From Thermodesulfobacteriota bacterium (GTDB lineage Bacteria > Desulfobacterota_D > UBA1144 > Nemesobacterales > Mycalebacteriaceae): a stretch of DNA of 64,000 bases. The notes under the pieces were generated by a model. That model saw only the letters and a list, made by a program, of their open reading frames with translations, had not been told where the DNA came from and searched no databases. The stretch spans positions 1,337,275 to 1,401,274 of the forward strand of contig OZ242184.1 in the NCBI GenBank assembly GCA_965205855.1. Direction: 5' to 3'. This document shows positions 33,796 through 54,999 of the stretch, in pieces. A program made the translations under genes and the position numbers. How positions within the stretch are numbered: the first letter of the stretch is position 1; each line of letters opens with the position of its first letter.

Positions 33796-36435
33796 ATGCA
33801 ACCGCTTTACCTCATAGACGGAAGCTCCTACATCTTTCGCGCCTACTACGCGGTTGACAGAAACTTCACCACATCGTCGGGGTTTCCGACAAATGCCGTT
33901 TTCGGGTTCTCAAACATGTTGCGCAAATTTATGAAAGATGTTAAGCCGCGCTATCTGGGCGTTGTTTTTGACTCAAAGAGCGACACTTTCAGAAAAAAGA
34001 TATATCCCGAATACAAAGCGAACCGCGGAGTCGCCCCTGAAGACTTGAGCATACAGATTGTGAAAATAATGGAACTTACCAAGGCGATGGGCATAAGGGT
34101 TGTTCAAAAAGAGAGGTTTGAAGCGGACGATCTCATGGCGACACTCGCAAAGGCGGCGGAAAGTCAGGGAAAAGAAGTCGTGCTGGTTACAAAAGACAAG
34201 GATTTCTGTCAGCTGGTTTCGGAAAAAACCACCATTTTCAACACAACGGGGGGGAAAACCGGAGTGGCGGAGGTTGAAAAAAAATACGGAGTTCCACCCG
34301 GAAAATTCATCGATTTTCTCGCACTCACGGGCGACTCATCGGACAACATTCCCGGCGTTGAGGGAATAGGACCGGTAGGTGCGGCAAATCTCATCGCCGA
34401 ATACGGAAGTCTGGAAAACCTCTATAAAAACACCGGAAAACTGAAAGGAAAACAGAGGGAAAGAATTGAGCGCGACAGGGAAAAGGCGTTTATGAGCAAA
34501 GACCTCGTAACCTTGAAAACCGATGTTGACACCGAAACTGACTGCGAAAAGTTCGCGTATGACGGGGTAAACACCGAGGAACTGAGCCGTCTTTACAAAG
34601 AACTTGAGTTTGACAACGAAACAAACCTTGAACGTGGAAACTCGGGCAGCTACGAGCTTATAACGGATGAGAAGGAGCTCGACGCCCTGACAGCCGAGAT
34701 AACCGGTTGTGGCTCCTTATCAATAGACCTTGAAACGACCTCCAAACGCCCGACCCGAGCGGAGATTGTCGGCATAGCACTCACGACCCCACGTGGCAGG
34801 CACTGCTACATACCGGTCGGACACACAAGCGGGGCTCAGATAGATCGCGAAACCGCACTTGAAAAAATCAGACAGGTCGCGGAAAACGAAAAAATCGCAA
34901 AGATAGGGCAAAACCTGAAATACGAGCACATAGTGTTTTCAAAACACGGGATTGAGCTCAGAGGAATCGGTTTTGACACAATGACCGCAGCACATTTTCT
35001 GGACTCGTCACATTTGAGTTACGGGCTTGACGAACTCGCGCGCAAGCGTCTCGGGCGCATGATGACCTCATACAAAGAGGTTACCTCAGAGGGGAAAAAA
35101 CAGATCCCGTTTGCGGAAGTGCCGCTTGAAAAAGCGAAAGACTACGCATGCGAAGACTCCGATGTGTCAATGGAGCTTTACAAACAGCTGTCTGCGGAAA
35201 TTGAAAAATCAAATATGACGAAAAACTACCGCAAAGGCGTTCTCGCGCTGACGGAAGTCCTTTCGGCCATGGAGAGGAAAGGGGTGCTTGCGGACACGGT
35301 AATCCTCGCGGAAATATCACGTGATTTCGCCGGACACATAGACCGCATATCGTCTGAAATCTACGCGGTCGCGGGATTTGAACTGAACCTCAACTCCACC
35401 GCCCAGCTGAAAGACCTGCTGTTCGGAAAACTCGGACTCAAACCCTCAAAACGCACCGCAAAAGGAGAACCCTCAACCGATTCGGAGGTTCTCAGAGACC
35501 TTTCAACGCTCCATCCGATTCCGGGCATGATTCTTGAATACAGGGAAATCTCCAAACTGAAATCCACATACGTTGACGCGCTGCCGAGGCTTGTGAACCC
35601 GTCAACTGGAAGGATTCACACATCATATAGCCCGACCGGAACCTCAACCGGAAGGCTCAGCTCAAGCGACCCCAATCTTCAGAACATTCCCGTGAAAAGC
35701 GCGGAGGGAAGAAAAATCCGGCGCGCGTTTGTTCCATCACCCGGCTTTATGTTCGTTTCGGCGGACTACTCTCAAATAGAGCTGCGTCTGCTCGCCCATT
35801 TTTCCGGGGACGAAAAACTCACTGCGGCTTTCGAAAACGGCGAAGACATCCATTCCTCAACGGCGGCGGAAATTTTTGGCATACCCGCGGAGTCGGTAAC
35901 GCCGGACATGAGGCGACTTGCCAAAAATATCAACTTTGGAATCATCTACGGCATAAGCCCCTTCGGTTTGTCAAAACAGCTCGGAACCTCGGTAAAACTC
36001 GCGGGCGAATACATGGACAGATACTTCGTACGCTATCGGTGCGTAAAGGATTACATGCGCGAATACGCGGAAAAGGCAAAGGCGCGCGGCTTTGCCGAAA
36101 CCCTTCTCGGACGCAGACGTTTTATCGCAGACCTTACGTCAAAAAACAAAATCAGAATCAGAAACGGAGAAAGGGCGGCAATCAACACGCCCATACAGGG
36201 CTCCGCGGCAGACATAATAAATATAGCGATGATAAATATTCATAAGAAAATAGCGCGTAAAAAATCATCAATGATTCTTCAGGTTCATGACGAACTTATC
36301 TTTGAAGTCTCAAGGGACGAGGAGGAAGAGATTTCCTCAATAGTCCGGCACGAAATGGAAAACACGCCTTTTGACCTGAAAGTGCGAATGAAAGTGGACA
36401 TAAAAAAGGGACAAAACTGGAACGAACTCGGCTGA
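33796..36435 (+). CDS. polA: DNA polymerase I
   Basis: LIDGSSYIFRAYY, EADD, GDSSDNIPGV, DLET exo motif, ADYSQIELR, LQVHDEL. Confidence 0.97.
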   Translation: MQPLYLIDGSSYIFRAYYAVDRNFTTSSGFPTNAVFGFSNMLRKFMKDVKPRYLGVVFDSKSDTFRKKIYPEYKANRGVAPEDLSIQIVKIMELTKAMGIRVVQKERFEADDLMATLAKAAESQGKEVVLVTKDKDFCQLVSEKTTIFNTTGGKTGVAEVEKKYGVPPGKFIDFLALTGDSSDNIPGVEGIGPVGAANLIAEYGSLENLYKNTGKLKGKQRERIERDREKAFMSKDLVTLKTDVDTETDCEKFAYDGVNTEELSRLYKELEFDNETNLERGNSGSYELITDEKELDALTAEITGCGSLSIDLETTSKRPTRAEIVGIALTTPRGRHCYIPVGHTSGAQIDRETALEKIRQVAENEKIAKIGQNLKYEHIVFSKHGIELRGIGFDTMTAAHFLDSSHLSYGLDELARKRLGRMMTSYKEVTSEGKKQIPFAEVPLEKAKDYACEDSDVSMELYKQLSAEIEKSNMTKNYRKGVLALTEVLSAMERKGVLADTVILAEISRDFAGHIDRISSEIYAVAGFELNLNSTAQLKDLLFGKLGLKPSKRTAKGEPSTDSEVLRDLSTLHPIPGMILEYREISKLKSTYVDALPRLVNPSTGRIHTSYSPTGTSTGRLSSSDPNLQNIPVKSAEGRKIRRAFVPSPGFMFVSADYSQIELRLLAHFSGDEKLTAAFENGEDIHSSTAAEIFGIPAESVTPDMRRLAKNINFGIIYGISPFGLSKQLGTSVKLAGEYMDRYFVRYRCVKDYMREYAEKAKARGFAETLLGRRRFIADLTSKNKIRIRNGERAAINTPIQGSAADIINIAMINIHKKIARKKSSMILQVHDELIFEVSRDEEEEISSIVRHEMENTPFDLKVRMKVDIKKGQNWNELG

Positions 36436-41229: not shown

Positions 41230-42291
41230 TTAAGCGATTGTTATTTTATTTTCAAGATACACATCCTGAACCGCGTGAAGAAGAGCCACTCCCTCCTTCA
41301 TAGGTTTCTGGAACGCTTTTCTTCCCGTTATAAGGCCCATTCCGCCCGCTCTTTTGTTTATCACCGCGGTTCTGACCACCATTTGCAGGTCGTTCCCGCC
41401 CGATGTTGCGCCGCCGGAATTTATAAGCCCTATTCTTCCCATGTAGCAGTTCATAACCTGATAGCGCGCAAGGTCTATGGGGTTTTCCGATGTCAGCCGG
41501 GAATACACCCTCTGATGCGTTTTGCCGAAGCGCAGGGCGGTAAATCCGCCGTTGTTTTCGGGTTGTTTCTGTTTCACAATATCTGCTTGTATGGTCGCGG
41601 CGAGGTGGTTTGCCTGTCCGGTAACATCGGCGGAAACGTGGTAATCGGTTTTGCCCTGTTTGAAATGCGGGTTTCTCAGATACGCCCACAGGACGGTAAC
41701 AAGCCCGAGCTCGTGTGCGCGCGCGAAGGCTTGTGAAATCTCCTCAATCTGCCGCGAGCTTTCCTCCGAGCCGTAATACACGGTGGCACCGACCGCCACT
41801 GCGCCCATGTCAAACGCCTGCTCCACATCGGCAAAAAGCGTCTGGTCGTATTTTTCGGGATAGGTGAGAAGTTCGTTATGGTTGATCTTCACTATAAACG
41901 GGATTTTATGCGCGTATTTTCTTGACACCGCGCCGAGGACCCCGAGGGTTGAGGCAACCGCGTTGCATCCGCCTTCAATCGCGAGGCGCACTATGTTTTC
42001 GGGGTCAAAGTATTCGGGATTGGGCGCGAAAGACGCTCCGGCGGAATGTTCAACTCCCTGATCAACCGGCAGGATTGAAACATAACCCGTGCCGCCAAGC
42101 CGCCCTGTGTTGAGAATTTGCTGAAAGTTTCTCATAACCGCGGGCGACCTGTCTGTCAGGGAAAAAACCCTGTCCACATAATCGGGACCGGGCTTGTGGA
42201 GCATATCGCCTGAAACCACGCACTTGTGGTTGAGAAGCGCGTCCGCTTCGGCTGCGAGAAGTTGCTCTATGTTAACTTTTGACCGTGGCAT
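41230..42291 (-). CDS. fbaB: Class I fructose-bisphosphate aldolase (DhnA family)
   Basis: [42 protein letters not shown]. Confidence 0.95.
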
Positions 42292-42406
42292 TTGAGTGTA
42301 AATATGCACCCGTTTCTTTGCGAACTTGAAGGATAACCTAAACGGGGCTGGCAGTAAATATGGCAAGTTATTACACAATGCCGTATCATTTCCCTTCTTA
42401 TCCGCA

Positions 42407-42703
42407 ATGAGCCAAAACACCATTCAACGCGCCCGTTACCGCATTACCGGAAAAGTGCAGGGAGTCGGTTACAGATACTGGACTTGGGCAAAAGCCCGCG
42501 AACTCAAACTAAACGGCTGGGTGGAAAACCAGACGGACGGAAGCGTAACGGCTCTGCTGGTTGGCAAAGAAGAACGGATTGCGGAGATGGAAAAGGATTT
42601 GGGCGCGGGACCTCCGGCGTCAGAAGTACGAGAGGTTGAAAATCTGGAACTCACCGGAGAGGACAAAATGTTTGAGGCGGAGGGATTTGAAATTCGGAGG
42701 TGA
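42407..42703 (+). CDS. acyP: Acylphosphatase
   Basis: [21 protein letters not shown]. Confidence 0.93.
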
Positions 42704-42722
42704 TATATTAACGGGAACAATT

Positions 42723-45700
42723 ATGGGTTCGGTTAAAGCAAAGAAATCGGTTTTGATTGACAATCGCGGGGCGAAGATGGCTGACTACCTTGCGCGTCAT
42801 CTCGGCGGTGCTGAAATTTTCCGGCTTGTTTCCGCATATTTCTCCATATACGGCTTTGAAGCCCTGCGGGAGCAACTTTGCAAACCATCACTGAAAAACA
42901 CCAAATTTCTGTTTGGCGACCCCGGTTCGGTGGGTGAGGTAGTCAGCGGCGAAAAACAGCAACGCTCATTCAATCTCAAAGAAAACGGCTTATCTGTTAA
43001 ATACACTAAAGTATTGCAACAACGGCAACTTGCCGAGCAATGCGCGGAATGGATAAAACAAAACAACGTGGAAATCCGCACCATAACGCAAAGCAATTTT
43101 CTTCACGGCAAGATGTATCACACGACCAATCCGGACGGGAGCGGAGTTGCGACTGTTGGCAGTTCCAACTTCACCCGGCGCGGTCTGGGACTGTCGGAAA
43201 ATCCCAACCTTGAAATCAACCTCGCAACCGAAAATACGGAAACGCACGAAGAGTTAAAGAGCTGGTTTGATAAAATATGGAATGACAAGACCCTGACCGA
43301 AGATGCCAAACGGCAGGTTCTGGATGTGCTGGAAAATCTATACCGCGAAAACGCTCCGGAATTCGTCTATTACAAAACCCTTTACGAATTGTTCCGCGAC
43401 AAAATAGAAAAGCGCGCCGAGGAAGACAGTTTATTGGAAAACACTCACCTATACGACTCTGAAATCTGGAAAACCCTATATGAATTTCAAAAAGACGGAG
43501 CCAAAAGCACGATTGCCCGTTTGCAACGGCACAACGGTTGCATTCTGGCGGACAGTGTGGGCTTGGGAAAAACATACACCGCACTGGCAGTAATCAAATT
43601 TTTTGAATTAAGAAATGCGACGGTATTAGTCCTCTGTCCCAAGAAACTGGAAAACAACTGGCGGGTATATCAAGCCGTCAATAATCAAAGTGGCAACCCG
43701 TTTTTGCAAGACAAATTTTCCTACACCTTATTAACGCATACCGATCTGAGCCGTGATTCGGGAATGTCGGGCGGCACAGACCTCGCCAACTTTAAGTGGG
43801 GAAATTACGACCTGGTTGTCATTGATGAATCGCACAACTTCCGCAATAACACCAAAAGCCGCAAAGACCCGGACGGAAACATAATACGCATGAGCCGCTA
43901 TGAAAAACTGATTAAAGACATTATTCAAGACGGCGTAAAAACCAAAGTATTAATGTTATCGGCAACCCCGGTAAATACCTCGCTGCTTGATTTACGCAAT
44001 CAGATATATCTGATGACGAGAGGGCTCGATGACCATCTGCTTGACAGTTTAGGGGTCGGCAACATTGGCGCGGTAATAAAAGACGCGCAGAACAAATTCA
44101 AGCAATGGGAAGAGCGACAAGACCAAAGACTAAACAAGGAAAATCTGCTAAAGGAACTTGGCGGAGACTTCCTGCACTTATTAGATGGCGTTACCCTTGC
44201 CCGTTCGCGCAAACAGATACGCAAATTCTATAAGGGCTTTATTGAAGAAGAAGGCGACTTTCCCAAACGTAAAAAGCCGGACAACCGATACCCGCATACT
44301 GATACTGAGAAGCAACTGTCTTATGAAAATCTGCACTCCAATATCTCAGCATTAAAATTCCGATTCTATCAACCCTCTCTCTATGTCATCGGGCCGGAAG
44401 CGCAACAACGGCTGGACGCTGAAAAAGAGGAGCACAATTTCAACCAGAAAGACCGTGAAATATTTCTCGCAGCGATGATGCGGATCAATTTTCTCAAACG
44501 ACTGGAAAGCTCGGCGCATGCTTTCACTCTGACATTGGAGCGCACCGCCGGGAAAATTGATGTGTTGATCGATAAAATAAAAAAATATCAGCAAAAAAAT
44601 TCACCCGATAAACAAACAGTTGAATGTTTGCCGGACGATGAAGAAGACGATGAAGAATTTTTAGTCAACCGCAACGCCATACATCCCTACAAATTGAGCG
44701 AATTAAATGTGGAACTATGGAAACAGAACATACAAAGCGACCGCAGAGTATTACAGCAAATACTTGACAAAATACAGACCATCACTCCGCAACGTGATGG
44801 AAAATTACAACTAATCAAAAAAGAACTGGAGAAAAAAGCGGCTCAAAAGAACCGCAAACTGCTTATATTCACCGCCTTCAAAGACACTGCGGAATATCTT
44901 TATGAAAACCTTGCCGAAACGGGTGAAAAACTGGGTCTTAACCTTGCGCTTGTTTGCGGGGATTTAACCAGAACCGGATACGGTAAAAACACCTTTGGCG
45001 ATATTCTCTACAATTTCGCGCCGCAGACCCGGCCCGGAAGGTCGCCCAAGGAACAAATTGACATTTTAATTGCGACCGATTGCATTTCAGAGGGTCAGAA
45101 CCTGCAGGACTGCGACACCGTATTAAACTACGACATCCACTGGAATCCGGTGCGCCTGATACAGCGTTTCGGGCGCATAGACAGGATTGGTAGCAAAAAC
45201 CTTTCCGTGAATATGATTAACTTCTGGCCAACGAAGGACATGAATCTGTACCTGAAATTGGAAAACCGGGTCAGGGCTCGCATGGCTCTCGTGGACGCGA
45301 CCGCGACCGGAGATGACAACAGTCTTGATGAAGCCGCTTTTAAAGAGGCGGCAAAGACGGAATTAAACTTCCGCGACCGGCAGATAGAGCGCATACGGGA
45401 AGAAATTATAGATTTTGAAGAAGCGTCGGATTCCATCAGCATGAGCGATTTAACGTTGGACTATTTTATGACCCAGCTTTTGCGTTATCTGGAAGCGAAC
45501 AAAGACGCATTGGAAAAGGCGCCGCATGGAATTCACGCAGTCATCAAGTCGAATACGCAGGACTTATCTGCCAAAGAAGCAAAACCCGGCGCGATATTCT
45601 TTTTCCGTCAGAACCATGCCGCCGAAAACAACATAAATAACCCGACCCATCCGTTTTATTTTGTCTATGTGCAAGAAGACGAGGGAGTGCGTTACGGATA

Positions 45701-46010
45701 TATAAACGCGCATATAATTTTACAACGGTTTGAAAATCTCAGCCACGGAAAAACCAAGCCCGACAACGCGCTCTGCAACGCTTTTAACAGTCAGATCAAA
45801 GATAATTTGGAACACTACAATAAACTGATAGAACAAGCGGTTGACCATATCAAAAAAGCTTTTTCCGACACTGCCAACAAAAATCTTTCAAAAAGCCGGG
45901 ATACGGTATTGCCTACAAAATCCGAAAATCCCGACCTGAAAAATTTGGAATTGCTGACTTGGCTTGTGATAACGAAACCGGGTTTTAAGACAGATGCCGG
46001 AAATTCGTGA
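42723..46010 (+). CDS. PLD-nuclease domain fused to SNF2-type SF2 helicase
   Basis: FLHGKMY...GSSNFT (PLD), LADSVGLGKT, IDESHNFR, LSATP, SEGQNLQ, WNPVRLIQRFGRIDRIG. Confidence 0.9.
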   Translation: MGSVKAKKSVLIDNRGAKMADYLARHLGGAEIFRLVSAYFSIYGFEALREQLCKPSLKNTKFLFGDPGSVGEVVSGEKQQRSFNLKENGLSVKYTKVLQQRQLAEQCAEWIKQNNVEIRTITQSNFLHGKMYHTTNPDGSGVATVGSSNFTRRGLGLSENPNLEINLATENTETHEELKSWFDKIWNDKTLTEDAKRQVLDVLENLYRENAPEFVYYKTLYELFRDKIEKRAEEDSLLENTHLYDSEIWKTLYEFQKDGAKSTIARLQRHNGCILADSVGLGKTYTALAVIKFFELRNATVLVLCPKKLENNWRVYQAVNNQSGNPFLQDKFSYTLLTHTDLSRDSGMSGGTDLANFKWGNYDLVVIDESHNFRNNTKSRKDPDGNIIRMSRYEKLIKDIIQDGVKTKVLMLSATPVNTSLLDLRNQIYLMTRGLDDHLLDSLGVGNIGAVIKDAQNKFKQWEERQDQRLNKENLLKELGGDFLHLLDGVTLARSRKQIRKFYKGFIEEEGDFPKRKKPDNRYPHTDTEKQLSYENLHSNISALKFRFYQPSLYVIGPEAQQRLDAEKEEHNFNQKDREIFLAAMMRINFLKRLESSAHAFTLTLERTAGKIDVLIDKIKKYQQKNSPDKQTVECLPDDEEDDEEFLVNRNAIHPYKLSELNVELWKQNIQSDRRVLQQILDKIQTITPQRDGKLQLIKKELEKKAAQKNRKLLIFTAFKDTAEYLYENLAETGEKLGLNLALVCGDLTRTGYGKNTFGDILYNFAPQTRPGRSPKEQIDILIATDCISEGQNLQDCDTVLNYDIHWNPVRLIQRFGRIDRIGSKNLSVNMINFWPTKDMNLYLKLENRVRARMALVDATATGDDNSLDEAAFKEAAKTELNFRDRQIERIREEIIDFEEASDSISMSDLTLDYFMTQLLRYLEANKDALEKAPHGIHAVIKSNTQDLSAKEAKPGAIFFFRQNHAAENNINNPTHPFYFVYVQEDEGVRYGYINAHIILQRFENLSHGKTKPDNALCNAFNSQIKDNLEHYNKLIEQAVDHIKKAFSDTANKNLSKSRDTVLPTKSENPDLKNLELLTWLVITKPGFKTDAGNS

Positions 46011-49000
46011 AGAAATAAAAACCGCCCTTGAGCGGTTTGGCAATCACGGTCAAAATTTTGACGATGCGGTTATCGGGTTGCTGAAAACTCTCGGCTATGA
46101 AAGCGAACGCGCAAAATATTTTTCGGGAACACCGGAGGAATTTAACCGGCAATACCCGCCTGAGTCTTACAAAACGGACACCAAAAGCGGGAGACAATTC
46201 CTAAAAATCACAGAAAAAACGCATACCGTTATACAAATCACCAATGAAGAAATCAGCAAATCCCCCAGCCTGTTTTCCTCTCAAGAAAAAGATTTTCAAT
46301 CAACAGACATTAAAAGCTTTCTATTCATTGCCATAGAATTAAAAAAAGGCAACTACCCGCGTGGCGTGTATGCCGACCTGACCCGTGAAATAAACAAGCA
46401 TTTTGCTATGCCGACTGTGGTTGTTTTTCACAACCCCGAAGGAAAACAGCTGACCATCGCGTTTATAAACCGCCGTGTCAGTAAAACGGATACAGGCCGC
46501 GATGTACTGGAAAAAGTCCACTTGATTAAAGACATCAATACGAAAAAACCGCACCGGGCGCATTTGGATATTCTTGCGCAACTTTCACTCCCTGAATGCC
46601 TTAAATGGATAGCACAAGAAAAACAAACCCAAGACTTTGACGGACTACTCAAAGCATGGTTAGCCACACTGGACATTGAGGAACTGAACAAAAAGTTTTA
46701 CAAAGAGTTATTAAAATGGTTTGAATGGGCAAAGGAAACCGCCAAATTCCCGACCGGAGACTCCAAGCAACCGATTAAATGGGAAGACCAGATCATCCGC
46801 CTTATAACCCGCTTGCTTTTTGTCTGGTTCATCAAGGAAAAAGGGCTTGTAGCCGAAGATTTATTTCATAGAGCGCAAATAGAAAATCTGTTAAAAGACA
46901 AATGCAAGCCGGACGGCGGAGATTATTATCGTGCCGTTTTGCAAAACCTGTTTTTTGCTACTCTCAACACCGAAATATACAAACGGGAATTCAGCCGTAA
47001 AACAAATGCCGACCACCGCAACTTTAACCTCTATCGCTATGAAAACCTGCTCAAAGACAAATCCAAACTTTTTAAATTGATGCGACAAACCCCGTTTATC
47101 AATGGGGGTTTGTTTGACTGTTTGGATAGTTTTGAAGCAACCGGAAACGACGGCTATCGCATTGATTGTTTTACGGACAACACCAAACACGGCAGAGAAC
47201 TTTCCGTTCCCAACAAACTGTTTTTTGATACGCCCAAAGGTTTTTTCACCATATTACAACAATACAAATTCACAGTAGAGGAAAACACCCCGATTGAGCA
47301 GGAAGTCGCATTAGACCCCGAACTGTTGGGGAAAGTGTTTGAAAATCTGCTCGCGGAATACAACCCCGAAACGCAGAAAACCGCGCGCAAACAAAGCGGC
47401 AGTTACTACACTCCGCGCGAAATTGTGGATTATATGGTCAACGAGGCGCTCATCGCGCGATTGGCGGATATGGCGGAACCTTCCATAGAAGACCCCGAGT
47501 TTTGGCGCGAACGTTTGAGTTATCTTTTAGACTATGCCGATTCTTTCAATGATGCAGAACAACTTTTTGATGAAACCGAAAAAAAACGCATTGTAAAAGC
47601 AATCTCGCAAATCAAAGTATTAGACCCTGCCGTTGGTTCCGGAGCGTTCCCTATGGGGATATTACACAAACTGACACTTGCGCTAAAGAGAATTGACCCT
47701 GAAAACAAACACTGGCAAAAACTGCAAAAAGAACTTGCCACAGGAAAAGTGAAAACGGCATTTGGAACCAAAAATCAAAGAGCGCGCGACAAAGAACTAA
47801 AAGACATCAGCCACACTTTTGAAACCTACAGAGACTCCGATTTCGGGCGCAAACTTTATCTGATACAAAACAGTATCTACGGCGTGGATATTCAACCAGT
47901 CGCCTGTCAAATTTCCAAACTGCGCTTTTTTATCTCCCTTGCTATTGAACAAGAACCTAATAAAAAACAGAAGGATAATTTCGGTATCAAGCCCCTACCC
48001 AATCTGGAGACCCGTTTTGTCACCGCTAACACACTTATCGTATTTTCTAAAAAAGATAAGCAAATGTCGCTCACAGATGAAACTGTACAAGAACTGGAGA
48101 GAAAACTACATGAAAACCGAGAAAAGCACTTCAATGCCAAAACCCGCAAATCAAAATTGAGATGTATTGAGGAAGACAAAAAATTACGAAATCAACTGGT
48201 AAAACAACTAAAAAAGACCTTCGGTTTTGACAATCAAGAAGCCGACAGAATTGCCCAATGGAACCCCTACAACCAAAACGGAGTCGCCGACTGGTTTGAT
48301 GCCGAATATATGTTTGGCGTTAAAAATGGCTTTGATATTGTTATTGGTAACCCGCCGTATATTCAATTGCAAAAAGACGGCGGGCGCTTGGGAAGCCTTT
48401 ATCAGAATTGCAATTTCAAGACCTTTGCCAGATCGGGAGATATCTACCAACTGTTCTATGAACGGGGTATGCAATTGCTAACCGATGCTCAAGGTATACT
48501 GGCGTTTATCACCTCCAACAGTTGGATGCGTGCCCAATACGGTAAAAAGCTGCGTGGCTTTTTAAGAGCGGAACACAGCCCCCTGCGCCTGATAGACATG
48601 GGCAAAAATGCCTTTGAGGCGATTGTGGATACCAATATATTACTGGCCAGCACAGGCAGGGCGGAACAAGAATTCAAGGCGGTTGACATGGATTCTCTTG
48701 CCGAAAAACAGTTTCCGCCTGCCGAGCACTACTGGTCGGAAATCGAGCCCGCTGATGATGTGGCCTGGAGCATATTGTCGCCGCTTGAGAAAAAGATAAA
48801 GTCCAGGATTGAACAGTTGGGCACCCCATTAAAAGACTGGGATATTCGTATTTATCGTGGAGTATTAACAGGCTTGAACGACGCCTTTATTATTGATACC
48901 GCTAAAAGGGATGAGTTGCTTGCCGCCGACCCAAAATCCGCCGAGATTATTAAACCCATTTTACGCGGCAGGGATGTAGGGCGATATGGGTATAAGTGGG

Positions 49001-49608
49001 CGGGGAAGTGGGTTATTGCTACTTTTCCGGCATTAAAAATTGATATTGATCATTATCTAGCCATTAAGAACCACTTATTAAGTTTTGGGAAAGACCGATT
49101 GGAGCAAGCAGGAAAGGCATTATCCGATGGCACAAAATCAAGAAAGAAAACAGGCAACAAATGGTTTGAAACCCAGGACCAAATCGGTTACCACACAGAA
49201 TTTGAAAAAGAAAAATTGATTTGGATGCACATGTCAGGTGATTCAAGGTTCTCATATAGTAACGGAGAACTATATTGTAATAATAAATGTTTCATCGTCA
49301 CTGGAGGTCAATTGAAATATCTTGGAGCCCTGCTGAACTCTAAATTAGTTTCATGGCTTATGAAGGTTGTAGGGGTACCAACTGGGATGGGGCTAATTCA
49401 ATGGGACAAATTTACTGTCGAAACAATACCGTGCGTCCGATTGTCTCAACCTGAGCAACAGCCCTTTATGGATATAGTCGATCAAATCCTCACCGCCAAA
49501 CAACAAGGCAAAGACACCACCGCGCTAGAGGCGGAAATTGATAAGAGGGTCTATCAGCTCTACAATCTCATTTCTGGTGAAATCAAAATCATTGAGGCTA
49601 AAAAATGA
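45994..49608 (+). CDS. Eco57I/type IIG-like N6-adenine DNA methyltransferase with TaqI_C-like TRD
   Basis: PFINGGLF, GSYYTPREIV, LDPAVGSGAF (motif I), IGNPPY (motif IV), C-terminal EIDKRVYQLYNL..EIKIIE. Confidence 0.92.
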   Translation: MPEIREEIKTALERFGNHGQNFDDAVIGLLKTLGYESERAKYFSGTPEEFNRQYPPESYKTDTKSGRQFLKITEKTHTVIQITNEEISKSPSLFSSQEKDFQSTDIKSFLFIAIELKKGNYPRGVYADLTREINKHFAMPTVVVFHNPEGKQLTIAFINRRVSKTDTGRDVLEKVHLIKDINTKKPHRAHLDILAQLSLPECLKWIAQEKQTQDFDGLLKAWLATLDIEELNKKFYKELLKWFEWAKETAKFPTGDSKQPIKWEDQIIRLITRLLFVWFIKEKGLVAEDLFHRAQIENLLKDKCKPDGGDYYRAVLQNLFFATLNTEIYKREFSRKTNADHRNFNLYRYENLLKDKSKLFKLMRQTPFINGGLFDCLDSFEATGNDGYRIDCFTDNTKHGRELSVPNKLFFDTPKGFFTILQQYKFTVEENTPIEQEVALDPELLGKVFENLLAEYNPETQKTARKQSGSYYTPREIVDYMVNEALIARLADMAEPSIEDPEFWRERLSYLLDYADSFNDAEQLFDETEKKRIVKAISQIKVLDPAVGSGAFPMGILHKLTLALKRIDPENKHWQKLQKELATGKVKTAFGTKNQRARDKELKDISHTFETYRDSDFGRKLYLIQNSIYGVDIQPVACQISKLRFFISLAIEQEPNKKQKDNFGIKPLPNLETRFVTANTLIVFSKKDKQMSLTDETVQELERKLHENREKHFNAKTRKSKLRCIEEDKKLRNQLVKQLKKTFGFDNQEADRIAQWNPYNQNGVADWFDAEYMFGVKNGFDIVIGNPPYIQLQKDGGRLGSLYQNCNFKTFARSGDIYQLFYERGMQLLTDAQGILAFITSNSWMRAQYGKKLRGFLRAEHSPLRLIDMGKNAFEAIVDTNILLASTGRAEQEFKAVDMDSLAEKQFPPAEHYWSEIEPADDVAWSILSPLEKKIKSRIEQLGTPLKDWDIRIYRGVLTGLNDAFIIDTAKRDELLAADPKSAEIIKPILRGRDVGRYGYKWAGKWVIATFPALKIDIDHYLAIKNHLLSFGKDRLEQAGKALSDGTKSRKKTGNKWFETQDQIGYHTEFEKEKLIWMHMSGDSRFSYSNGELYCNNKCFIVTGGQLKYLGALLNSKLVSWLMKVVGVPTGMGLIQWDKFTVETIPCVRLSQPEQQPFMDIVDQILTAKQQGKDTTALEAEIDKRVYQLYNLISGEIKIIEAKK

Positions 49609-51290
49609 TTACCAAAATCAGTATTAAACGCTTTAAGCAAATCTCTGATGAAACCATCGATCTTGAACCGGTGGTGGTATTGGTCGGACCTAATAATAGC
49701 GGCAAGACCAGTCTATTGCAGGCATTTTCGCTATTAGCAATAGCAATCAAGGTATGGGCTGAAAAACGCCTTGATAATCCAACCAAACAAAATCAACGCA
49801 CGGGTATTGCGATTAATTTAAACGATATAAATATACCAGCCGCTGAGTTTAAAGAGCTATGGCAAAATACTAAAACCAGAGAAGGCAATACCACTAAAAA
49901 AGGTACAACGCCCATCAAGATAGAAATCCATGCCAAAGGAGAGAGCTATGACCAAGAGCAAAAAACAAAGTCATGGGAAGTAGGTTTTGAATTTAGTTAT
50001 CAGCGAGATAGTGTTATTTACACCAAACTCATTGATGGCTATCAGTTTGAAACTATTTTAACGAAAGAAAGTATTGGTTTTTTGCCGTCTATATCTGGTC
50101 TTACTCTTAAAGAAGACAAATTAGAGATGGGTTCTATTCTTCGCCGTATTAGTGAGGGGCAGACTGCTACGGTGCTGCGGAATATTTGTTACCATTTATA
50201 TGAAAACAACCAACAAGGCTGGAATGGTCTCGTCAAAAGTATTAAGGATTTATTTGCCATTGAGTTAAACACGCCCAGGTATTATCCGAATAGTGGCTTG
50301 TTGGAACTCAACTATAATGAAACCACTAATAAAAAAATGTCGCTTTCCGCACTCGGTAGTGGTGCAAAACAGGCCATTTTACTATTTGCCTATCTAGGTG
50401 CGTTTAAAAATACTATTAGTTTACTTGATGAGCCTGATGCCCACCTTGAAGTCATTAAACAAGCTAATGTTTATTATAGTTTGAGTGATTTTGCTAAACG
50501 GAATAATAGCCAGCTAATTATTGCCAGCCATTCAGAAAGCGTGCTTAATGCCGCTAAAGATGACTTAATAATTTCATCTATGTCGGGTAAGTTTGAAAAA
50601 GAATCCGCCAAGGATATTAAAGCTTTTTTAAAAGATTATCCTTATGAGCAATACTTGTTAGCCAAACAAAAGCCTTTTATCTTATATTATGAAGGAACTA
50701 CTGATTTGGCTTTTATACGAGCATTTTGCAAAAAATTAGGCAAACAGGAATACCTTGAGCAATTAAATACAGCTATCTATCCTTTTTCGCTGGGTGGTAA
50801 TGATATGGGTAAAGCAAAAAAACATTTTTCTGCCCTAAAGGAATACCTGCCCGAACTAAGGGGTTTTGCCTTATTTGATAATCTGGACAAGGATATTCAA
50901 GACATTCCAGAAGGTCTAAAAATGCATCAATGGCAACGTAAGGAAATAGAAAACTATATTCCCGTACCCAGCACACTGATGAACTATATCGACGCACAAT
51001 CTGGGGATTTGTTTTCTCAAACTTACCCATCAAGATTAGAGCATATTCTAAAAGAGAATATACCTCCCGCCGCCTATGATAATTTAGAAAATGATTTTTG
51101 GATGGAGACCAAAATAGGCGATTTCCTCACCAGAATTTTTGAGCAATTTTTAGATGAAACCAGTCAACCCAAAGGCACAATGGATAAATCAAAATTTTAT
51201 CTATTAGTGAATCATATTGACGATGATCAATTAGATGGTGAGTTAAAAAAAACGCTTGATAGCATATTTACTCATTTAGCAAAACCCTGA
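49605..51290 (+). CDS. ABC-type ATPase with C-terminal TOPRIM-like domain (OLD/AAA_21-like)
   Basis: GPNNSGKT, LGSGAKQ, LLDEPDAHL, ASHS; YYEGTTD, FDNLD, EIENY; AT-rich; ATGA overlap with the MTase stop. Confidence 0.82.
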   Translation: MITKISIKRFKQISDETIDLEPVVVLVGPNNSGKTSLLQAFSLLAIAIKVWAEKRLDNPTKQNQRTGIAINLNDINIPAAEFKELWQNTKTREGNTTKKGTTPIKIEIHAKGESYDQEQKTKSWEVGFEFSYQRDSVIYTKLIDGYQFETILTKESIGFLPSISGLTLKEDKLEMGSILRRISEGQTATVLRNICYHLYENNQQGWNGLVKSIKDLFAIELNTPRYYPNSGLLELNYNETTNKKMSLSALGSGAKQAILLFAYLGAFKNTISLLDEPDAHLEVIKQANVYYSLSDFAKRNNSQLIIASHSESVLNAAKDDLIISSMSGKFEKESAKDIKAFLKDYPYEQYLLAKQKPFILYYEGTTDLAFIRAFCKKLGKQEYLEQLNTAIYPFSLGGNDMGKAKKHFSALKEYLPELRGFALFDNLDKDIQDIPEGLKMHQWQRKEIENYIPVPSTLMNYIDAQSGDLFSQTYPSRLEHILKENIPPAAYDNLENDFWMETKIGDFLTRIFEQFLDETSQPKGTMDKSKFYLLVNHIDDDQLDGELKKTLDSIFTHLAKP

Positions 51291-51354
51291 AAATATCAGC
51301 TAACTGGTCTATAAACACTACAACCTCACCGCTGATGAAATCAAAATCATTGAA
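51289..51354 (+). repeat. Degenerate copy 2 of the MTase 3' tail
   Basis: Translates ENIS*LVYKHYNLTADEIKIIE versus MTase EIDKRVYQLYNLISGEIKIIE. Confidence 0.8.
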
Positions 51355-51360
51355 ATCAAG

Positions 51361-51469
51361 GTCACTCCTGCACACAAAAAACAACGTCACTCCCGAAAAA
51401 CACCGCCACTTCCAAGAAAAACCGTCATTCCCGAAAAAAACCGTCATTCCCGCGCAGGCGGGAATCCAG
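51361..51469 (+). repeat. Left REP array: degenerate half-sites plus full palindrome CGTCATTCCCGCGCAGGCGGGAATCCAG (51442-51469)
   Basis: Half-sites at 51361, 51385, 51404 and 51423; full site has an ATTCCC-N8-GGGAAT core. Confidence 0.9.
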
Positions 51470-51480
51470 CGAATAACACC

Positions 51481-51774
51481 ATGAGCCACAAACAACCTGC
51501 TGTTTATATTTTGGCAAGCCAACCTAATGGTACGTTATACACTGGCGTTACTTCTGATTTAATCAAACGTGTCTGGGAACATAAAAATCATTTGGTCAAA
51601 GGATTCAGTCAAAAATATAACGTAGACCTTTTGGTCTATTTCGAATTGCATGCAGATATGTATGTTGCAATTACGCGTGAAAAGCAAATCAAGAAATGGA
51701 AGCGGGCATGGAAGCTGAGGTTGATTGAAGATAAGAATCCACATTGGAGGGATTTATATAAAGATTTGGTTTGA
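51481..51774 (+). CDS. Stand-alone GIY-YIG nuclease, copy A
   Basis: AVYILAS..NGTLYTGVT..L.KRV.EHK, AITREKQIKKWKRAWK, NP.W.DLY. Confidence 0.92.
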   Translation: MSHKQPAVYILASQPNGTLYTGVTSDLIKRVWEHKNHLVKGFSQKYNVDLLVYFELHADMYVAITREKQIKKWKRAWKLRLIEDKNPHWRDLYKDLV

Positions 51775-52030
51775 CTGGATTCCCGCCTGCGCGGGAATGA
51801 CGTTCCAGGAGGTCTTGGCGCCCACTGAGACGGCCTGGATTCCCGCCTGCGCGGGAATGACGAATAGGAAAAGCGGGAATGACTAATAGAGAAGAAGCGG
51901 GAATGACATTCCAGGAGGTCTTGGCGCCCACTGAGGCGGCCTGGATTCCCGCCTGCGCGGGAATGACTAATAGAAGAAGCGGGAATGACTAATAGGAGAA
52001 GGGGAATGACGGACGGGGAGCGGAGATGAC
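51775..52030 (-). repeat. Right REP array A: inverted full palindromes, half-sites and 32-bp spacers
   Basis: CTGGATTCCCGCCTGCGCGGGAATGAC at 51775, 51835 and 51941; GCGGGAATGAC-type half-sites between and after. Confidence 0.92.
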
Positions 52031-52043
52031 AGACAGAGGGCAG

Positions 52044-52203
52044 AAACAACAGCCATTTATAGAAACAGTCGTTTCTAGAAGCAGCCAACAAAATCATCAA
52101 AGTCAAACAACAAGGCAAAGACACCACCGCGCTGGAAACCGAAATTGATAAGAGGGTCTATCAGCTCTACAATCTCATTTCTGGTGAAATTGGAATCATT
52201 GAA
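52044..52203 (+). repeat. Copy 3 of the MTase 3' tail
   Basis: 52105-52133 identical to 49498-49526 and 52141-52190 identical to 49534-49583; upstream KQQPFIETV resembles EQQPFMDIV. Confidence 0.92.
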
Positions 52204-52262
52204 ATCAAGGTCACTCCTGCACACAGAAAACAACGTCATTCCCGAAAAACACCGCCACTTCC

Positions 52263-52812
52263 AAAAAAACCGTCATTCCCGCGCAGGCGGGAATCCAGCG
52301 AATAACACCATGAGCTAAAAACAACCTGCTGTTTATATTTTGGCAAACCAACCTAATGGTACGTTATACACTAAAAAAACCGTCATTCCCGCGCAGGCGG
52401 GAATCCAGCGAATAACACCATGAGCCGCAAACAACCTGCTGTTTATATTTTGGCAAGCCAACCTAATGGTACGTTATGCACTAAAAAAACCGTCATTCCC
52501 GCGCAGGCGGGAATCCAGCGAATAACACCATGAGCCACAAACAACCTGCTGTTTATATTTTGGCAAGCCAACCTAATGGTACGTTATGCACTAAAAAAAC
52601 CGTCATTCCCGCGCAGGCGGGAATCCAGCGAATAACACCATGAGCCGCAAACAACCTGCTGTTTATATTTTGGCAAGTCAACCTAATGGTACGTTATGCA
52701 CTAAAAAAACCGTCATTCCCGCGCAGGCGGGAATCCAGCGAATAACACCATGAGCCACAAACAACCTGCTGTTTATATTTTGGCAAGTCAACCTAATGGT
52801 ACGTTATACACT
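52263..52812 (+). repeat. Five tandem 110-bp units (REP plus first 21 codons of the GIY-YIG gene)
   Basis: CGTC starts at 52271, 52381, 52491, 52601 and 52711; unit-specific SNPs; the fifth unit continues into the intact gene. Confidence 0.95.
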
Positions 52813-53043
52813 GGCGTTACTTCTGATTTAATCAAACGTGTCTGGGAACATAAAAATCATTTGGTCAAAGGATTTAGTCAAAAATATAACGTAGACCTTT
52901 TGGTCTATTTCGAATTGCACGCAGATATGTATGTTGCAATTACGCGTGAAAAGCAAATCAAGAAATGGAAGCGGGCATGGAAGCTGAGGTTGATTGAAGA
53001 TAAGAATCCACATTGGAGGGATTTATATAAAGATTTGGTTTGA
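52750..53043 (+). CDS. Stand-alone GIY-YIG nuclease, copy B (protein identical to copy A)
   Basis: Same 97-aa translation, a few synonymous differences, offset 1269 bp. Confidence 0.92.
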   Translation: MSHKQPAVYILASQPNGTLYTGVTSDLIKRVWEHKNHLVKGFSQKYNVDLLVYFELHADMYVAITREKQIKKWKRAWKLRLIEDKNPHWRDLYKDLV

Positions 53044-53501
53044 CTGGATTCCCGCCTGCGCGGGAATGACGTTCCAGGAGGTCTTGGCGCCCACTGAGAC
53101 GGCCTGGATTCCCGCCTGCGCGGGAATGACGAATAGGAAAAGCGGGAATGACTAATAGAGAAGAAGCGGGAATGACATTCCAGGAGGTCTTGGCGCCCAC
53201 TGAGGCGGCCTGGATTCCCGCCTGCGCGGGAATGACTAATAGAAGAAGCGGGAATGACGTTCCAGGAGGTCTTGGCGCCCACTGAGGCGGCCTGGGTTCC
53301 CGCCTGCGCGGGAATGACGAATAGGAGAAGCGGGAATGACGAATAGAGAAGAAGCGGGAATGACGTTCCAGGGGGTCTTGACGCCCACTGAGGCGGCCTG
53401 GATTCCCGCCTGCGCGGGAATGACGAATAGAAGAAACGGGAATGACGAATAGGAGAAGCGGGAATGACGTTCCGGGAGGTCTTGGCGCCCACCGAGGCGG
53501 C
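53044..53501 (-). repeat. Right REP array B (expanded)
   Basis: Full inverted palindromes at 53044, 53104, 53210, 53292 and 53398, half-sites, five 32-bp spacers. Confidence 0.92.
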
Positions 53502-53783
53502 TTGAAGATTGACGGCGGACTGCGGTTCAACAGCGACCCGGACGGCAGTAACGGGGGAAGAAACAACGAAGCGGGCTCTTTGCCAAATCATGTTGACGCG
53601 GCTTCGGTTGGACTGGGTTACGACTTCCCGTTTTACTCAACCTATCTCGGCGCGTCTTACCTGCGCCAAAATGACGCTGATAACTATGAGCGCAATTTCT
53701 TCGGCGTTGTGGGAAAAGTAAAAACCGCAGTGAACACGTTCAGCATCGGCATTCGCTTTGACTTCGAAGTTCCGATTCTTTAA
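53470..53783 (+). pseudogene. 3' remnant of an outer-membrane beta-barrel protein gene
   Basis: GGLKIDGGLRF...AASVGLGYDF...YLGASYLRQ...FSIGIRFDF amphipathic strands; no signal peptide or credible start. Confidence 0.55.
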
Positions 53784-53796
53784 TCCGCGGAAAAAC

Positions 53797-54999
53797 TTAA
53801 CAATCTTTTTCATCCAGAATGGAAATCCCCGGCAAATCCGCGCCGCTCAGGAATTTCAACGCCGCGCCGCCGCCCGTGGAAACGTGCTTCAACTCCGAAC
53901 TCAAAACCTCGGCTTTCCTTATCGCCGCTACGCTCTCGCCCCCGCCCGCGACCGTTACTGCACCGCGCCATGTTTCAAGGGCAATCGCCCTCGCCACTTG
54001 AGTCGTGCCGTTGGAAAACCCGTCCAACTCAAAAACACCCATCGGACCGTTCCAGAAAATCGTCTTTTTGCCCTTCATGCGAGATGTGAAATTAACAATC
54101 GTCTTGGGTCCTATGTCAAAACCCTTCAGATGCGGAGGTATATCCCCCTCAAGAAGAATCGGGTTTTTTGTTTTCTCCATATCCTCGGCGACAACATGGT
54201 CACACGGAAGAACTATCTTGTCCCCGTATTCCTTAATCGCACCTGCCGCCCAGTCAACCATCTCCTCCTCAACAATGGATTGCCCCACGCTGTCTCCGCG
54301 CGCTTTTAAAAATGTGTACGCAACCCCGCCGCCCACGATTATCTCATCCGCCTTCTCAAGCAGATTCTCCAAAGCGTTTATCTTGTCCTTGATTTTCGCC
54401 CCTCCGACCATGACCAGATAAGGCCTTTCGGGTTTGTCAACAAGGGTTTTGAAAAAACCTATCTCTGTGTTTACCACAAAACCCGCGATTTTTTTCTCAA
54501 AGTAATCGCCCACGCCGTAGGTTGACGAATGCATACGGTGCGAAGTTCCAAACGCATCGTTGACATAAATATCGGCAAATTCCGAAAGCCGCCTGCAAAA
54601 TTCGGGGTCGCAATTCCTCTCTTCGGGAAAAAACCTTAAATTCTCAAGAAGAAGAACCTCACCCTCGCGTAGCTTCTCAACCTCGCTGTCAACACCCTCA
54701 CCGACAACGCCGCCCGGAAATTTCACGGGCTTGCCAAGTAACTCCCCAAGCCTCTCCGCGATGGGGGCAAGCGAAAGCGATTCCACAAAATTCCCTCTCG
54801 GACGCCCGAGATGAGATGCCACAACAACCTTCGCCCCGCGCTCGGCAAGATAGGCAATCGTGGTAAAAGACCTTCTTATTCTGTAATCTTCGGTGATTTT
54901 TCCGCCCTTGAGCGGAACATTGAAATCCACTCTGACAAAAAATCTGCCGCCCTTTATCTCGGAATCGGACAGGTCTGAAACGACCATTTTTGATTTCAA
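53797..54999 (-). CDS. pgk: Phosphoglycerate kinase
   Basis: RVDFNVP, SHLGRP, LLENLRF, WNGPMGVFE, STGGGA. Confidence 0.97.
   Translation of the reverse strand: MKSKMVVSDLSDSEIKGGRFFVRVDFNVPLKGGKITEDYRIRRSFTTIAYLAERGAKVVVASHLGRPRGNFVESLSLAPIAERLGELLGKPVKFPGGVVGEGVDSEVEKLREGEVLLLENLRFFPEERNCDPEFCRRLSEFADIYVNDAFGTSHRMHSSTYGVGDYFEKKIAGFVVNTEIGFFKTLVDKPERPYLVMVGGAKIKDKINALENLLEKADEIIVGGGVAYTFLKARGDSVGQSIVEEEMVDWAAGAIKEYGDKIVLPCDHVVAEDMEKTKNPILLEGDIPPHLKGFDIGPKTIVNFTSRMKGKKTIFWNGPMGVFELDGFSNGTTQVARAIALETWRGAVTVAGGGESVAAIRKAEVLSSELKHVSTGGGAALKFLSGADLPGISILDEKDC

Follow-up and report, generated by a model that had tools for sequence, protein, structure and literature searches.

The window (the whole stretch of DNA analysed, 64,000 nucleotides) contains two genes that encode identical 97-aa GIY-YIG proteins (51481-51774 and 52750-53043). 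Each gene, referred to here as ssnA, is bracketed by mirrored exact copies of a 28-bp hairpin sequence, the NTS: the left one ends 11 nt before the ATG and the right one begins directly after the stop. At copy A, the left NTS ends at 51469, the ATG lies at 51481 and the right NTS begins at 51775. This tight bracketing had been described in a first-pass annotation of the same DNA and is borne out here, as is its observation that the unit occurs twice: the stretches 51434-51989 and 52703-53258 differ at only 3 of 556 positions. The features of the locus are as follows.

42296..53800, no strand: island containing the cassette, placed from the aldolase-pgk neighbours in three same-genus relatives; genes by Pfam and PADLOC
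42561-46010, island: HKD+Snf2 helicase-nuclease (Pfam, PADLOC)
45994-49608, island: type IIG-like Eco57I/TaqI_C methylase (Pfam, PADLOC)
49605-51290, island: OLD/AriA-like AAA_15 ATPase (Pfam, PADLOC)
51306..51353, + strand: remnant of the methylase gene 3' end (83% identity over 48 nt to 49548-49595)
51385..51433, + strand: upstream half-sites, hairpin 5' arm plus A-run, decaying away from the gene (19-nt period, 51377-51452)
51442..51469, + strand: NTS hairpin to the left of copy A (fits the published consensus exactly; folds)
51481..51774, + strand: ssnA copy A, 97-aa single-domain GIY-YIG protein (PF01541)
51775..51802, - strand: right NTS hairpin of copy A (28-mer match)
51442-51802: conserved 361-bp unit (similarity to other genomes' loci ends at both limits)
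51803..52011, - strand: downstream array with two further NTS (51835-51862, 51941-51968) and half-sites (106-nt and 22-nt periods)
52091..52202, + strand: second remnant of the methylase gene 3' end (90% identity over 112 nt to 49484-49595)
52263..52812, + strand: 110-bp tandem array of 5 units, the last running into the intact copy B (TRF: period 110, 5.0 copies, 97% matches)
52750..53043, + strand: ssnA copy B, protein identical to copy A (protein search)
53044..53501, - strand: right NTS of copy B, then an array with four more NTS (53104, 53210, 53292, 53398) and half-sites (28-mer matches, periodicity)
53442-53783, right part of the island: gene fragment (Pfam, PADLOC)

The arrays around the two genes had been described as half-sites in mirror orientation. 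That orientation is strict: all 9 half-sites in + orientation lie to the left of a gene copy and all 19 in - orientation lie to the right (11-mer, ≤2 mismatches). The description overlooked the 110-bp array, each unit of which consists of an A-run, an NTS, an 11-nt spacer and the first 21 ssnA codons. Because these units carry a full hairpin and 21 codons, they are not half-sites; a protein search recovers four N-terminal ssnA fragments within the array. The number of 5.0 copies is known from the assembly alone, since no public short-read contig bridges the array. An assembly chimera is unlikely, as the same arrangement of pieces is present in three independent chromosome-level MAGs.

The hairpin and its distribution

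The 28-mer hairpin, CGTCATTCCCGCGCAGGCGGGAATCCAG, has 14 matches at ≤3 mismatches in the window (11 exact, 3 with one mismatch; 6 on the + strand and 8 on the - strand), while its chance expectation, from dinucleotide-preserving shuffles, is 0. All 14 lie inside 51442-53425. In its single-stranded fold (-8.9 kcal/mol), the 28-mer has a stem of 8 bp closed by a 4-nt loop; only 1 of 200 shuffles is equally stable, which upholds the earlier description of each repeat as a hairpin. The sequence agrees at all positions with the published NTS consensus, CGTCATTCCCGCGMAVGCGGGAATCYRG (Chenal et al., Nat Commun 2025;16:2388, PMC11893778). Both the CGTC tag, which stays unpaired, and the 3' CCAG are kept between phyla.

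The 28-mer was not found in the rest of the window, just as the first-pass annotation had said of the palindrome, nor in the remainder of the 1,401,274-bp genome. The pattern ATTCCC-N8-GGGAAT has 14 matches, 13 at the ssnA locus and one unrelated match in a coding sequence (window 34348). We therefore rejected the idea that the NTS is a genome-wide REP, since every copy in the 1.40-Mb genome falls within one 2-kb locus, and for this reason the term 'REP-associated', applied to the element earlier, fails. Three MAGs that contain the same cassette hold 12, 2 and 4 NTS copies, nearly all at ssnA loci.

The ssnA protein and its homologues

The 97-aa protein matches Pfam PF01541 over residues 7-79 (E 7.2e-14), and no second domain was found. 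An NCBIfam search with the protein gave nothing above cut-off, PADLOC had no model matching the nuclease, and a PDB sequence search returned only spurious WD40-repeat matches. Across 33 homologues, residues Y9, Y20 and E67 never vary and R30 hardly does. With an offset of +3, the three invariant positions correspond (by this offset, not by direct alignment) to Y6, Y17 and E64, the catalytic residues published for the 94-aa Neisseria SsnA (PMC11893778); the offset is consistent, because most homologues align from residue 4.

According to Supplementary Data 4 of PMC11893778, Oceanisphaera litoralis and Ectothiorhodospira lacustris carry an ssnA homologue (cd10448) that is >60% identical to N. 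meningitidis SsnA. Searching genomes of these two species with the window protein gave a single hit in each, at 65-66% identity. Through these homologues, and thus indirectly, the window protein is placed in the Ssn (SsnA/cd10448) family. The genome of N. lactamica NS19, reached through an exact NTS match, gave no hit with the window protein as query; the only small GIY-YIG gene there is of another type, YhbQ, and has no hairpins. Because Supplementary Data 4 lists another, complete N. lactamica genome as ssnA-positive (PMC11893778), the blank in NS19 is uninformative about the species.

To quantify the association of gene and hairpin, we surveyed the 76 homologue loci whose gene has 100 nt or more of sequence on each side. 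An NTS (≤3 mismatches) lies within 100 nt of a gene end at 51/76 loci, and at 18/76 it is present on both sides in mirrored orientation, while control windows 1 kb away contain one in only 1/61 cases. The homologues are thus enriched for flanking palindromes, a check that the first-pass annotation had proposed, and the published frequency of the association is 31-71% (PMC11893778). The left and right NTS arms of one locus are more alike than arms compared across loci (0/2000 permutations reach the observed mean), a signal that is overstated because the loci are related. A methylase C-terminus upstream of the gene was rejected as a family-wide feature: it occurs within 400 nt in only 4/75 loci, all of a single lineage.

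Transfer, proposed role and possible mobility of the cassette

The 11.5-kb defence island is missing in three same-genus relatives, where the aldolase gene (window 41230-42423) lies only ~70-110 bp from pgk (window 53797-54999). Homologues of the nuclease occur in 1/5 same-genus and 7/20 same-order relatives, and the sole same-genus homologue among the 5 is only 67% identical. In contrast, the 361-bp unit is identical at 361/361 positions to one in a Nitrospinales MAG; the units in Nitrospinales, Halieaceae and Ca. Spongiihabitans MAGs are 361/361, 359/361, 356/361 and 351/361 identical (97-99% in the two distant MAGs besides the Nitrospinales one). Identity of this unit across phyla indicates a very recent transfer. 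The tract in common with other MAGs exceeds the cassette: it covers 2.3 kb at 95% identity, with the ATPase gene included, and identity at the 3' end of the methylase gene is 89-97%. Clearly, the cassette did not evolve in place: unrelated bacteria were its source, and it was transferred horizontally as part of the 11.5-kb restriction/defence island.

We conclude, with a probability of about 0.88, that the locus holds an NTS-ssnA-NTS cassette in two copies and that this cassette belongs to the published Ssn family. Experiments with four homologues showed that SsnA recognises the NTS hairpin only when the DNA is single-stranded and that it cleaves one strand only, a few nt upstream of the hairpin (PMC11893778). 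By homology, the window enzyme would bind the 28-nt CGTC-tagged hairpin when it is single-stranded and would cut that strand by hydrolysis, a few nt to the 5' side of the tag, sparing duplex DNA and the complementary strand. The earlier proposal that the nuclease acts on the flanking CGTC palindrome thus probably holds, by analogy with the cleavage beside the NTS shown in those four homologues (PMC11893778). Given the mirror orientation of the two flanking hairpins, each strand should offer cleavable sites only at its own 5' side, and judging from the geometry of the locus the cuts would fall just outside the cassette. The surrounding arrays resemble Neisseria mosaic arrays. They contain the hairpin joined to the gene 5' end, the hairpin joined to a spacer, half-sites and methylase 3'-end copies, and were most likely generated when the repeated hairpins slipped or recombined unequally.

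SsnA is reported to modulate integration at NTS-flanked chromosomal genes (PMC11893778); with no hairpin elsewhere in the window genome, this role cannot apply as described, and without further hairpin copies the enzyme cannot be organising the genome. Its likely role here would be to cut incoming or exposed single-stranded DNA that bears the hairpin.

A further reading, compatible with the cassette reading since it concerns the role of the cassette, makes it a working part of the defence island that restricts hairpin-bearing single-stranded DNA (conjugation, transformation, ssDNA phages) alongside the neighbouring restriction-modification genes. The other island genes (the HKD+Snf2 nuclease-helicase, the type IIG-like methylase and the OLD/AriA-like ATPase) point this way, as does the description of the Neisseria enzyme as an ssDNA restriction mechanism (PMC11893778). 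The nearest neighbour is a restriction-modification gene in 10/80 loci (11 if a ResIII-only helicase is included), a count set beside a background rate that is itself an estimate, and in 3 of these restriction-neighbour loci the cassette lies between hsdM and hsdS. Moreover, in four public runs the hairpin-bearing sequence is 100-1000 times deeper than its flanks, so that hairpin-bearing DNA is abundant around the organism; no RNA run was listed among the public runs with the locus sequence. However, at ~70/80 loci the neighbour is an ordinary metabolic or housekeeping gene, and the link with restriction genes may merely reflect recombination hot spots. We hold this reading only tentatively.

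It is unlikely, in our judgement, that the 361-bp NTS-ssnA-NTS unit moves autonomously in the manner of an IS or a homing element, its nuclease setting off the spread of the unit and the amplification of the hairpin, a hypothesis also raised in the Discussion of PMC11893778. Its borders are sharp: similarity to six homologue loci in unrelated contexts (83-87% identity) begins at 51441-51443 and ends at 51802, at the outer hairpin ends, and two metagenome contigs span just 51442-51798 and 51442-51802. The patchy distribution, the identical or near-identical units in different phyla and the presence of more than one copy both in the window genome and in the Nitrospinales MAG fit such an element as well. 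Against this, the horizontally shared tracts run past the ends of the cassette, which fits a passenger better than self-mobility, and the left border of the island carries no hairpin. The only clean empty site found is that of the whole 11.5-kb island. For the cassette alone we saw neither a target-site duplication nor a clean empty site; the flanks of two of the six loci, L013 and L014, are not colinear in a related genome. Six Thiobacillus loci share one gene context and look like vertical inheritance. A GIY-YIG enzyme works by hydrolysis, without the covalent intermediate that would let it reseal strands on its own, and no strand-transfer chemistry is known for such hydrolytic enzymes. The mirrored hairpins would also leave just one cleavable site per strand per cassette. 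Of the mobile, REPtron-like element proposed by the first-pass annotation, the horizontal transfer and the sharp borders stand, within a larger island, and the empty site that it suggested looking for in relatives exists for that island.

Alternatively, the cassette might be more than a passenger, namely an active recombination-promoting module that moves between phyla in one community and carries adjacent restriction-specificity segments with it. The 3' part of the methylase gene, which contains the target-recognition domain, is 97% identical to that of a Halieaceae MAG, while the 5' part is only ~70% identical; methylase 3'-end remnants are repeated ahead of each cassette, and the 110-bp arrays could have been left by template switching during the repair of breaks that Ssn had initiated. 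We regard this as a doubtful proposition.

Finally, it is very improbable that the hairpins are only transcription or regulatory signals (terminators, attenuators) of a housekeeping nuclease gene, without recognition by the enzyme: the right hairpin does abut the stop codon, and the minus-strand upstream hairpins are followed by a terminator-like T-run (6/8 sites found in the region against 3.8 expected from shuffles), but binding and cleavage at the same hairpin sequence are published for homologues (PMC11893778), the CGTC tag and 3' CCAG kept across phyla would be needless for a plain terminator, and half-site arrays have no terminator logic.

Taken together, what the first-pass annotation observed is confirmed and its interpretation is partly supported. 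The main point was already published in 2025, and the locus is a further example of it, not a discovery. In our literature searches, the link between the nuclease family and the hairpin was found in PMC11893778 alone, and a small GIY-YIG gene inside hsd operons was not found in the material covered. The main text of PMC11893778, outside its references, contains no mention of restriction-modification, hsd, methyltransferase or defence; the recurring position beside or inside restriction-modification operons may point to an Ssn role outside Neisseria. Self-mobility of the cassette is unproven, and the mobility of the NTS-ssnA-NTS arrangement is a question left by PMC11893778 on which the locus is a natural experiment. 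It combines the absence of a hairpin background, an island empty site in close relatives and cassettes that are identical base for base in unrelated phyla. The junctions of the array units and of the methylase remnants can, in addition, be compared with the mapped cut site of the enzyme.

Comparison with known systems

GIY-YIG homing endonucleases of the I-TevI type combine the nuclease with a DNA-binding domain, reside in an intron or phage setting and act on a duplex homing site. The window protein resembles them in its GIY-YIG catalytic domain and in its tie to horizontal spread. Unlike them, it has no DNA-binding domain, no intron or phage context was found at the locus, and the substrate of its family is single-stranded hairpin DNA, not a duplex site. 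Its score against TIGR01453, the NCBIfam group I intron endonuclease model, is 19.6 bits against a cut-off of 56.05.

REPtrons reportedly consist of a RAYT, an IS200/IS605-like HUH Y1 transposase, flanked by GTAG REPs. The locus shares with them a small nuclease gene between inverted copies of a hairpin recognised in single-stranded DNA, and a patchy, horizontally influenced spread. It differs in chemistry and tag (GIY-YIG hydrolysis and CGTC, rather than a covalent tyrosine intermediate of an HUH enzyme and GTAG): the GIY-YIG domain is the only one in the 97-aa protein, with no HUH/Y1 tyrosine transposase, and the palindrome is not dispersed through the window genome. As in an insertion sequence, the 361-bp unit is discrete and has fixed ends in varied contexts.

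The Neisseria dRS3 and CGTC-1 REPs (PMC3733652) have the same ATTCCC-N8-GGGAAT core and CGTC tag and form mosaic arrays interleaved with short repeats, as at the locus; they are dispersed in Neisseria, whereas the window holds a single 2-kb cluster in a non-Neisseria genome. In 2013, Di Nocera et al. wrote that no enzyme seemed to be dedicated to the CGTC repeats (PMC3733652). The earlier remark that dRS3/CGTC repeats have no known cognate enzyme was right for that paper and is now outdated, superseded because PMC11893778 reports SsnA.

The closest match is the Ssn family itself, for which the NTS-ssnA-NTS layout and the analogy with IS and RAYT elements are already discussed in PMC11893778. 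The locus shares with it a single-domain GIY-YIG protein of ~95 aa, NTS-consensus hairpins that flank the gene, the conserved Tyr/Tyr/Glu residues and an association that extends across phyla. Neisseria genomes contain hundreds of NTS (446 in N. meningitidis; Supplementary Data 4, PMC11893778), whereas the window genome has them at the ssnA locus only. The locus further differs from the published Ssn examples in its duplicated cassette, its 110-bp array of the hairpin with a truncated gene start, its restriction/defence island context and its identity across phyla.

The ssnA locus and its hairpins

Two open reading frames in the window (51481-51774 and 52750-53043) encode the same 97-aa protein, which carries a single GIY-YIG domain (Pfam PF01541, E = 7.2e-14). 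The 28-mer CGTCATTCCCGCGCAGGCGGGAATCCAG occurs in 14 copies at ≤3 mismatches (11 exact and three with one mismatch; 0 expected), six on the + strand and eight on the − strand, all within 51442-53425; folded as single-stranded DNA, it has a stem of 8 bp and a loop of 4 nt (−8.9 kcal/mol). The ATG lies 11 nt beyond the end of the left 28-mer, and the right 28-mer begins directly after the stop codon. Partial hairpin copies (half-sites) keep a strict mirror arrangement: all 9 in + orientation lie left of a gene and all 19 in − orientation lie right of one. The first-pass annotation had described this layout of ORFs, flanking 28-mers and mirrored half-sites, and our analysis confirms it, together with the two near-identical units (51434-51989 and 52703-53258), which differ at 3 of 556 positions. 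Its account of the arrays was right about the mirrored half-sites and missed one feature:

52263-52812, tandem array of five 110-bp units, 97% matches

Each unit joins a full hairpin to codons 1-21 of the gene and breaks inside the second catalytic motif (...LYT/GVT); a protein search of the genome recovered four truncated ssnA starts from this array.

The core ATTCCC-N8-GGGAAT has 14 matches in the whole 1,401,274-bp single-contig genome: 13 are at the ssnA locus, and the remaining one, at window position 34348, is unrelated and falls within a coding sequence. The palindrome is thus private to the nuclease locus, and its initial interpretation as a REP is wrong for this genome. The ssnA/hairpin feature is real and well delimited. 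A second, distant GIY-YIG gene lies outside the window (G000:C1:1003953-1004177; 35% identity over residues 9-83), and the genome-wide hairpin map places no hairpin near it. In contigs of four public runs, bins holding the hairpin are 100-1000 times deeper than unique flanks; two contigs span just the 361-bp unit, and none bridges the arrays.

Family membership and gene-hairpin association

The 28-mer agrees at every position with the NTS, the hairpin of the Ssn system, as defined by Chenal et al. 2025 (CGTCATTCCCGCGMAVGCGGGAATCYRG; PMC11893778). SsnA is reported there as a 94-aa GIY-YIG protein of cd10448 that binds the NTS hairpin in single-stranded DNA only and cleaves a few nucleotides upstream of it, with no cleavage of the reverse strand, duplex DNA or RNA; cutting is lost in the mutants Y6A, Y17A and E64A (PMC11893778). 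The alignment of 33 homologues drawn from many phyla contains 23 invariant columns, including Y9, Y20 and E67, which correspond to the published catalytic residues indirectly, by a +3 offset. O. litoralis and E. lacustris each have a homologue in cd10448 that is >60% identical to the Neisseria enzyme (Supplementary Data 4, PMC11893778), and in genomes of these species the window protein has a single match each, with 65-66% identity. The tie to Neisseria SsnA and cd10448 is an indirect chain through these two species and, judged by sequence identity, does hold. The one Neisseria genome searched, the N. lactamica NS19 draft, yielded no ssnA when queried with the window protein; it contains exact NTS copies, and its sole small GIY-YIG gene (L233:1489-1764) is of the 91-aa YhbQ type, without hairpins. 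A different N. lactamica genome is listed as ssnA-positive (PMC11893778).

To quantify the association, we took the best 80 homologue loci from public genomes, 76 of which had ≥100 nt on both sides. As the first-pass annotation had anticipated, hairpins accompany the gene: an NTS (≤3 mismatches) lies within 100 nt of a gene end in 51/76 loci and in 1/61 control windows 1 kb away. Both sides carry an NTS in mirror orientation in 18/76 loci; the published frequencies of NTS-like motifs at ssnA homologues are 31-71% for one side and 14-42% for both (PMC11893778). Inverted repeats scoring ≥30 between upstream and downstream 60-mers were found in 23/78 loci and 0/62 controls. Arms within a locus fit each other better than they fit the arms of other loci (0/2000 permutations, a figure inflated by related loci), and hairpin variants visibly co-vary: loci with ATTCCCGC...GCGGGAAT and loci with ATTCCTGC...GCAGGAAT always carry their variant on both sides. 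The exact 28-mer occurs in at least 123 stretches from genomes of many phyla.

Two same-genus relatives, G002 and G005, hold 12-13 NTS-like hairpins dispersed over several contigs; neither genome gave an ssnA homologue when searched with the window protein, and these may be orphan hairpins. At two loci (L012 and L014, about 1930-1995), a second small GC-rich hairpin is nested in the loop of the upstream NTS, and L014 has its mirror image in the downstream copy. In L014, from a Ca. Spongiihabitans MAG, ssnA is centred in a very long inverted duplication (1309-2938; arms 1309-1990 and 2294-2938, 90-98% complementary), which could be a genuine foldback duplication or have arisen in assembly.

A defence island and its putative passenger cassette

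The surroundings of the locus comprise the following features:

41230-42423, aldolase gene
42296-53800, defence island, 11.5 kb, with no counterpart in same-genus relatives, where the aldolase gene adjoins pgk
45994-49608, mosaic methylase gene
53442-53783, ORF of 113 aa starting within the hairpin array, inside the island and next to the pgk stop
53797-54999, pgk

The aldolase gene lies about 70-110 bp from pgk in three relatives (G001, G002, G003) and 11.5 kb from it here. The first-pass annotation had proposed looking for empty sites: these relatives provide one for the island, and no clean one was found for the cassette (NTS-ssnA-NTS) alone. The island encodes an HKD+Snf2 helicase-nuclease, a type IIG-like Eco57I/TaqI_C methylase, an OLD/AriA-like ATPase and the ssnA arrays. 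The 113-aa ORF has no Pfam match; by eye, its C-terminal part resembles the end of an outer-membrane beta-barrel protein. A short ORF at the left end (42410-42703) resembles, by eye, an acylphosphatase. The TTG start listed for the helicase ORF overlaps it and is probably wrong for that reason.

A Nitrospinales MAG carries an exact copy of the 361-bp unit (51442-51802; 361/361 positions) and a second one matching at 359/361; a unit in a Halieaceae MAG matches at 356/361 and one in a Ca. Spongiihabitans MAG at 351/361. Homologues were present in 1/5 same-genus and 7/20 same-order relatives searched, the sole same-genus one having 67% identity.

Is the cassette itself the mobile unit? Similarity to more distant cassettes in other contexts (83-87% identity) runs from 51441-51443 to 51802, the hairpins' outer ends. 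The tract common to the window and the Nitrospinales MAG is longer, 2.3 kb at 95%, and takes in the ATPase gene. The methylase 3' part (48268-49608, 1.34 kb, with the TaqI_C target-recognition domain) is 89-97% identical to all three MAGs (97% Halieaceae, 89-91% Nitrospinales), the 5' part about 70%, a mosaic that points to recent exchange of the specificity region. Both cassettes are preceded by copies of the final 50-110 nt of the methylase gene, and the island's left border has no hairpin. Six Thiobacillus loci (L037, L051, L052, L068, L073, L076) share one context, in which genes for pyruvate:ferredoxin oxidoreductase and a dihydroorotate dehydrogenase-like protein flank the homologue, suggesting stable vertical descent there. 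Simple self-transposition is thus disfavoured by the long shared tracts, the methylase 3' copies, the hairpin-free left border, the lack of a clean empty site for the cassette and the conserved Thiobacillus context. The tract pattern resembles that of homologous recombination in a common restriction-system backbone, the cassette being carried along.

Restriction-modification genes also adjoin ssnA elsewhere. When the nearest ORFs of the 80 loci (146 ORFs) were compared with Pfam, such genes were neighbours in 10 (11 including a ResIII-only helicase), a raw count. The cassette sits between hsdM and hsdS in L025, L046 and L070 (gene at about 2001-2290 in each); L018, L027, L035, L056, L059, L062 and L012 adjoin type I or type IIG genes. 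The main text of PMC11893778 contains no link of ssnA to restriction-modification genes.

Relation to the published Ssn system

Our literature search found no paper besides PMC11893778 on this nuclease-hairpin pairing, and the window locus is a new member of the family published in 2025. By homology, the first-pass proposal that the nuclease nicks at the palindrome should be right, such activity being already known from SsnA and three more homologues, which cleave beside their own hairpins (PMC11893778). As to mobile-element status, the evidence tilts towards a passenger or a recombination module; in their Discussion, Chenal et al. 2025 draw an analogy with insertion sequences and RAYT/REP and propose domestication (PMC11893778).
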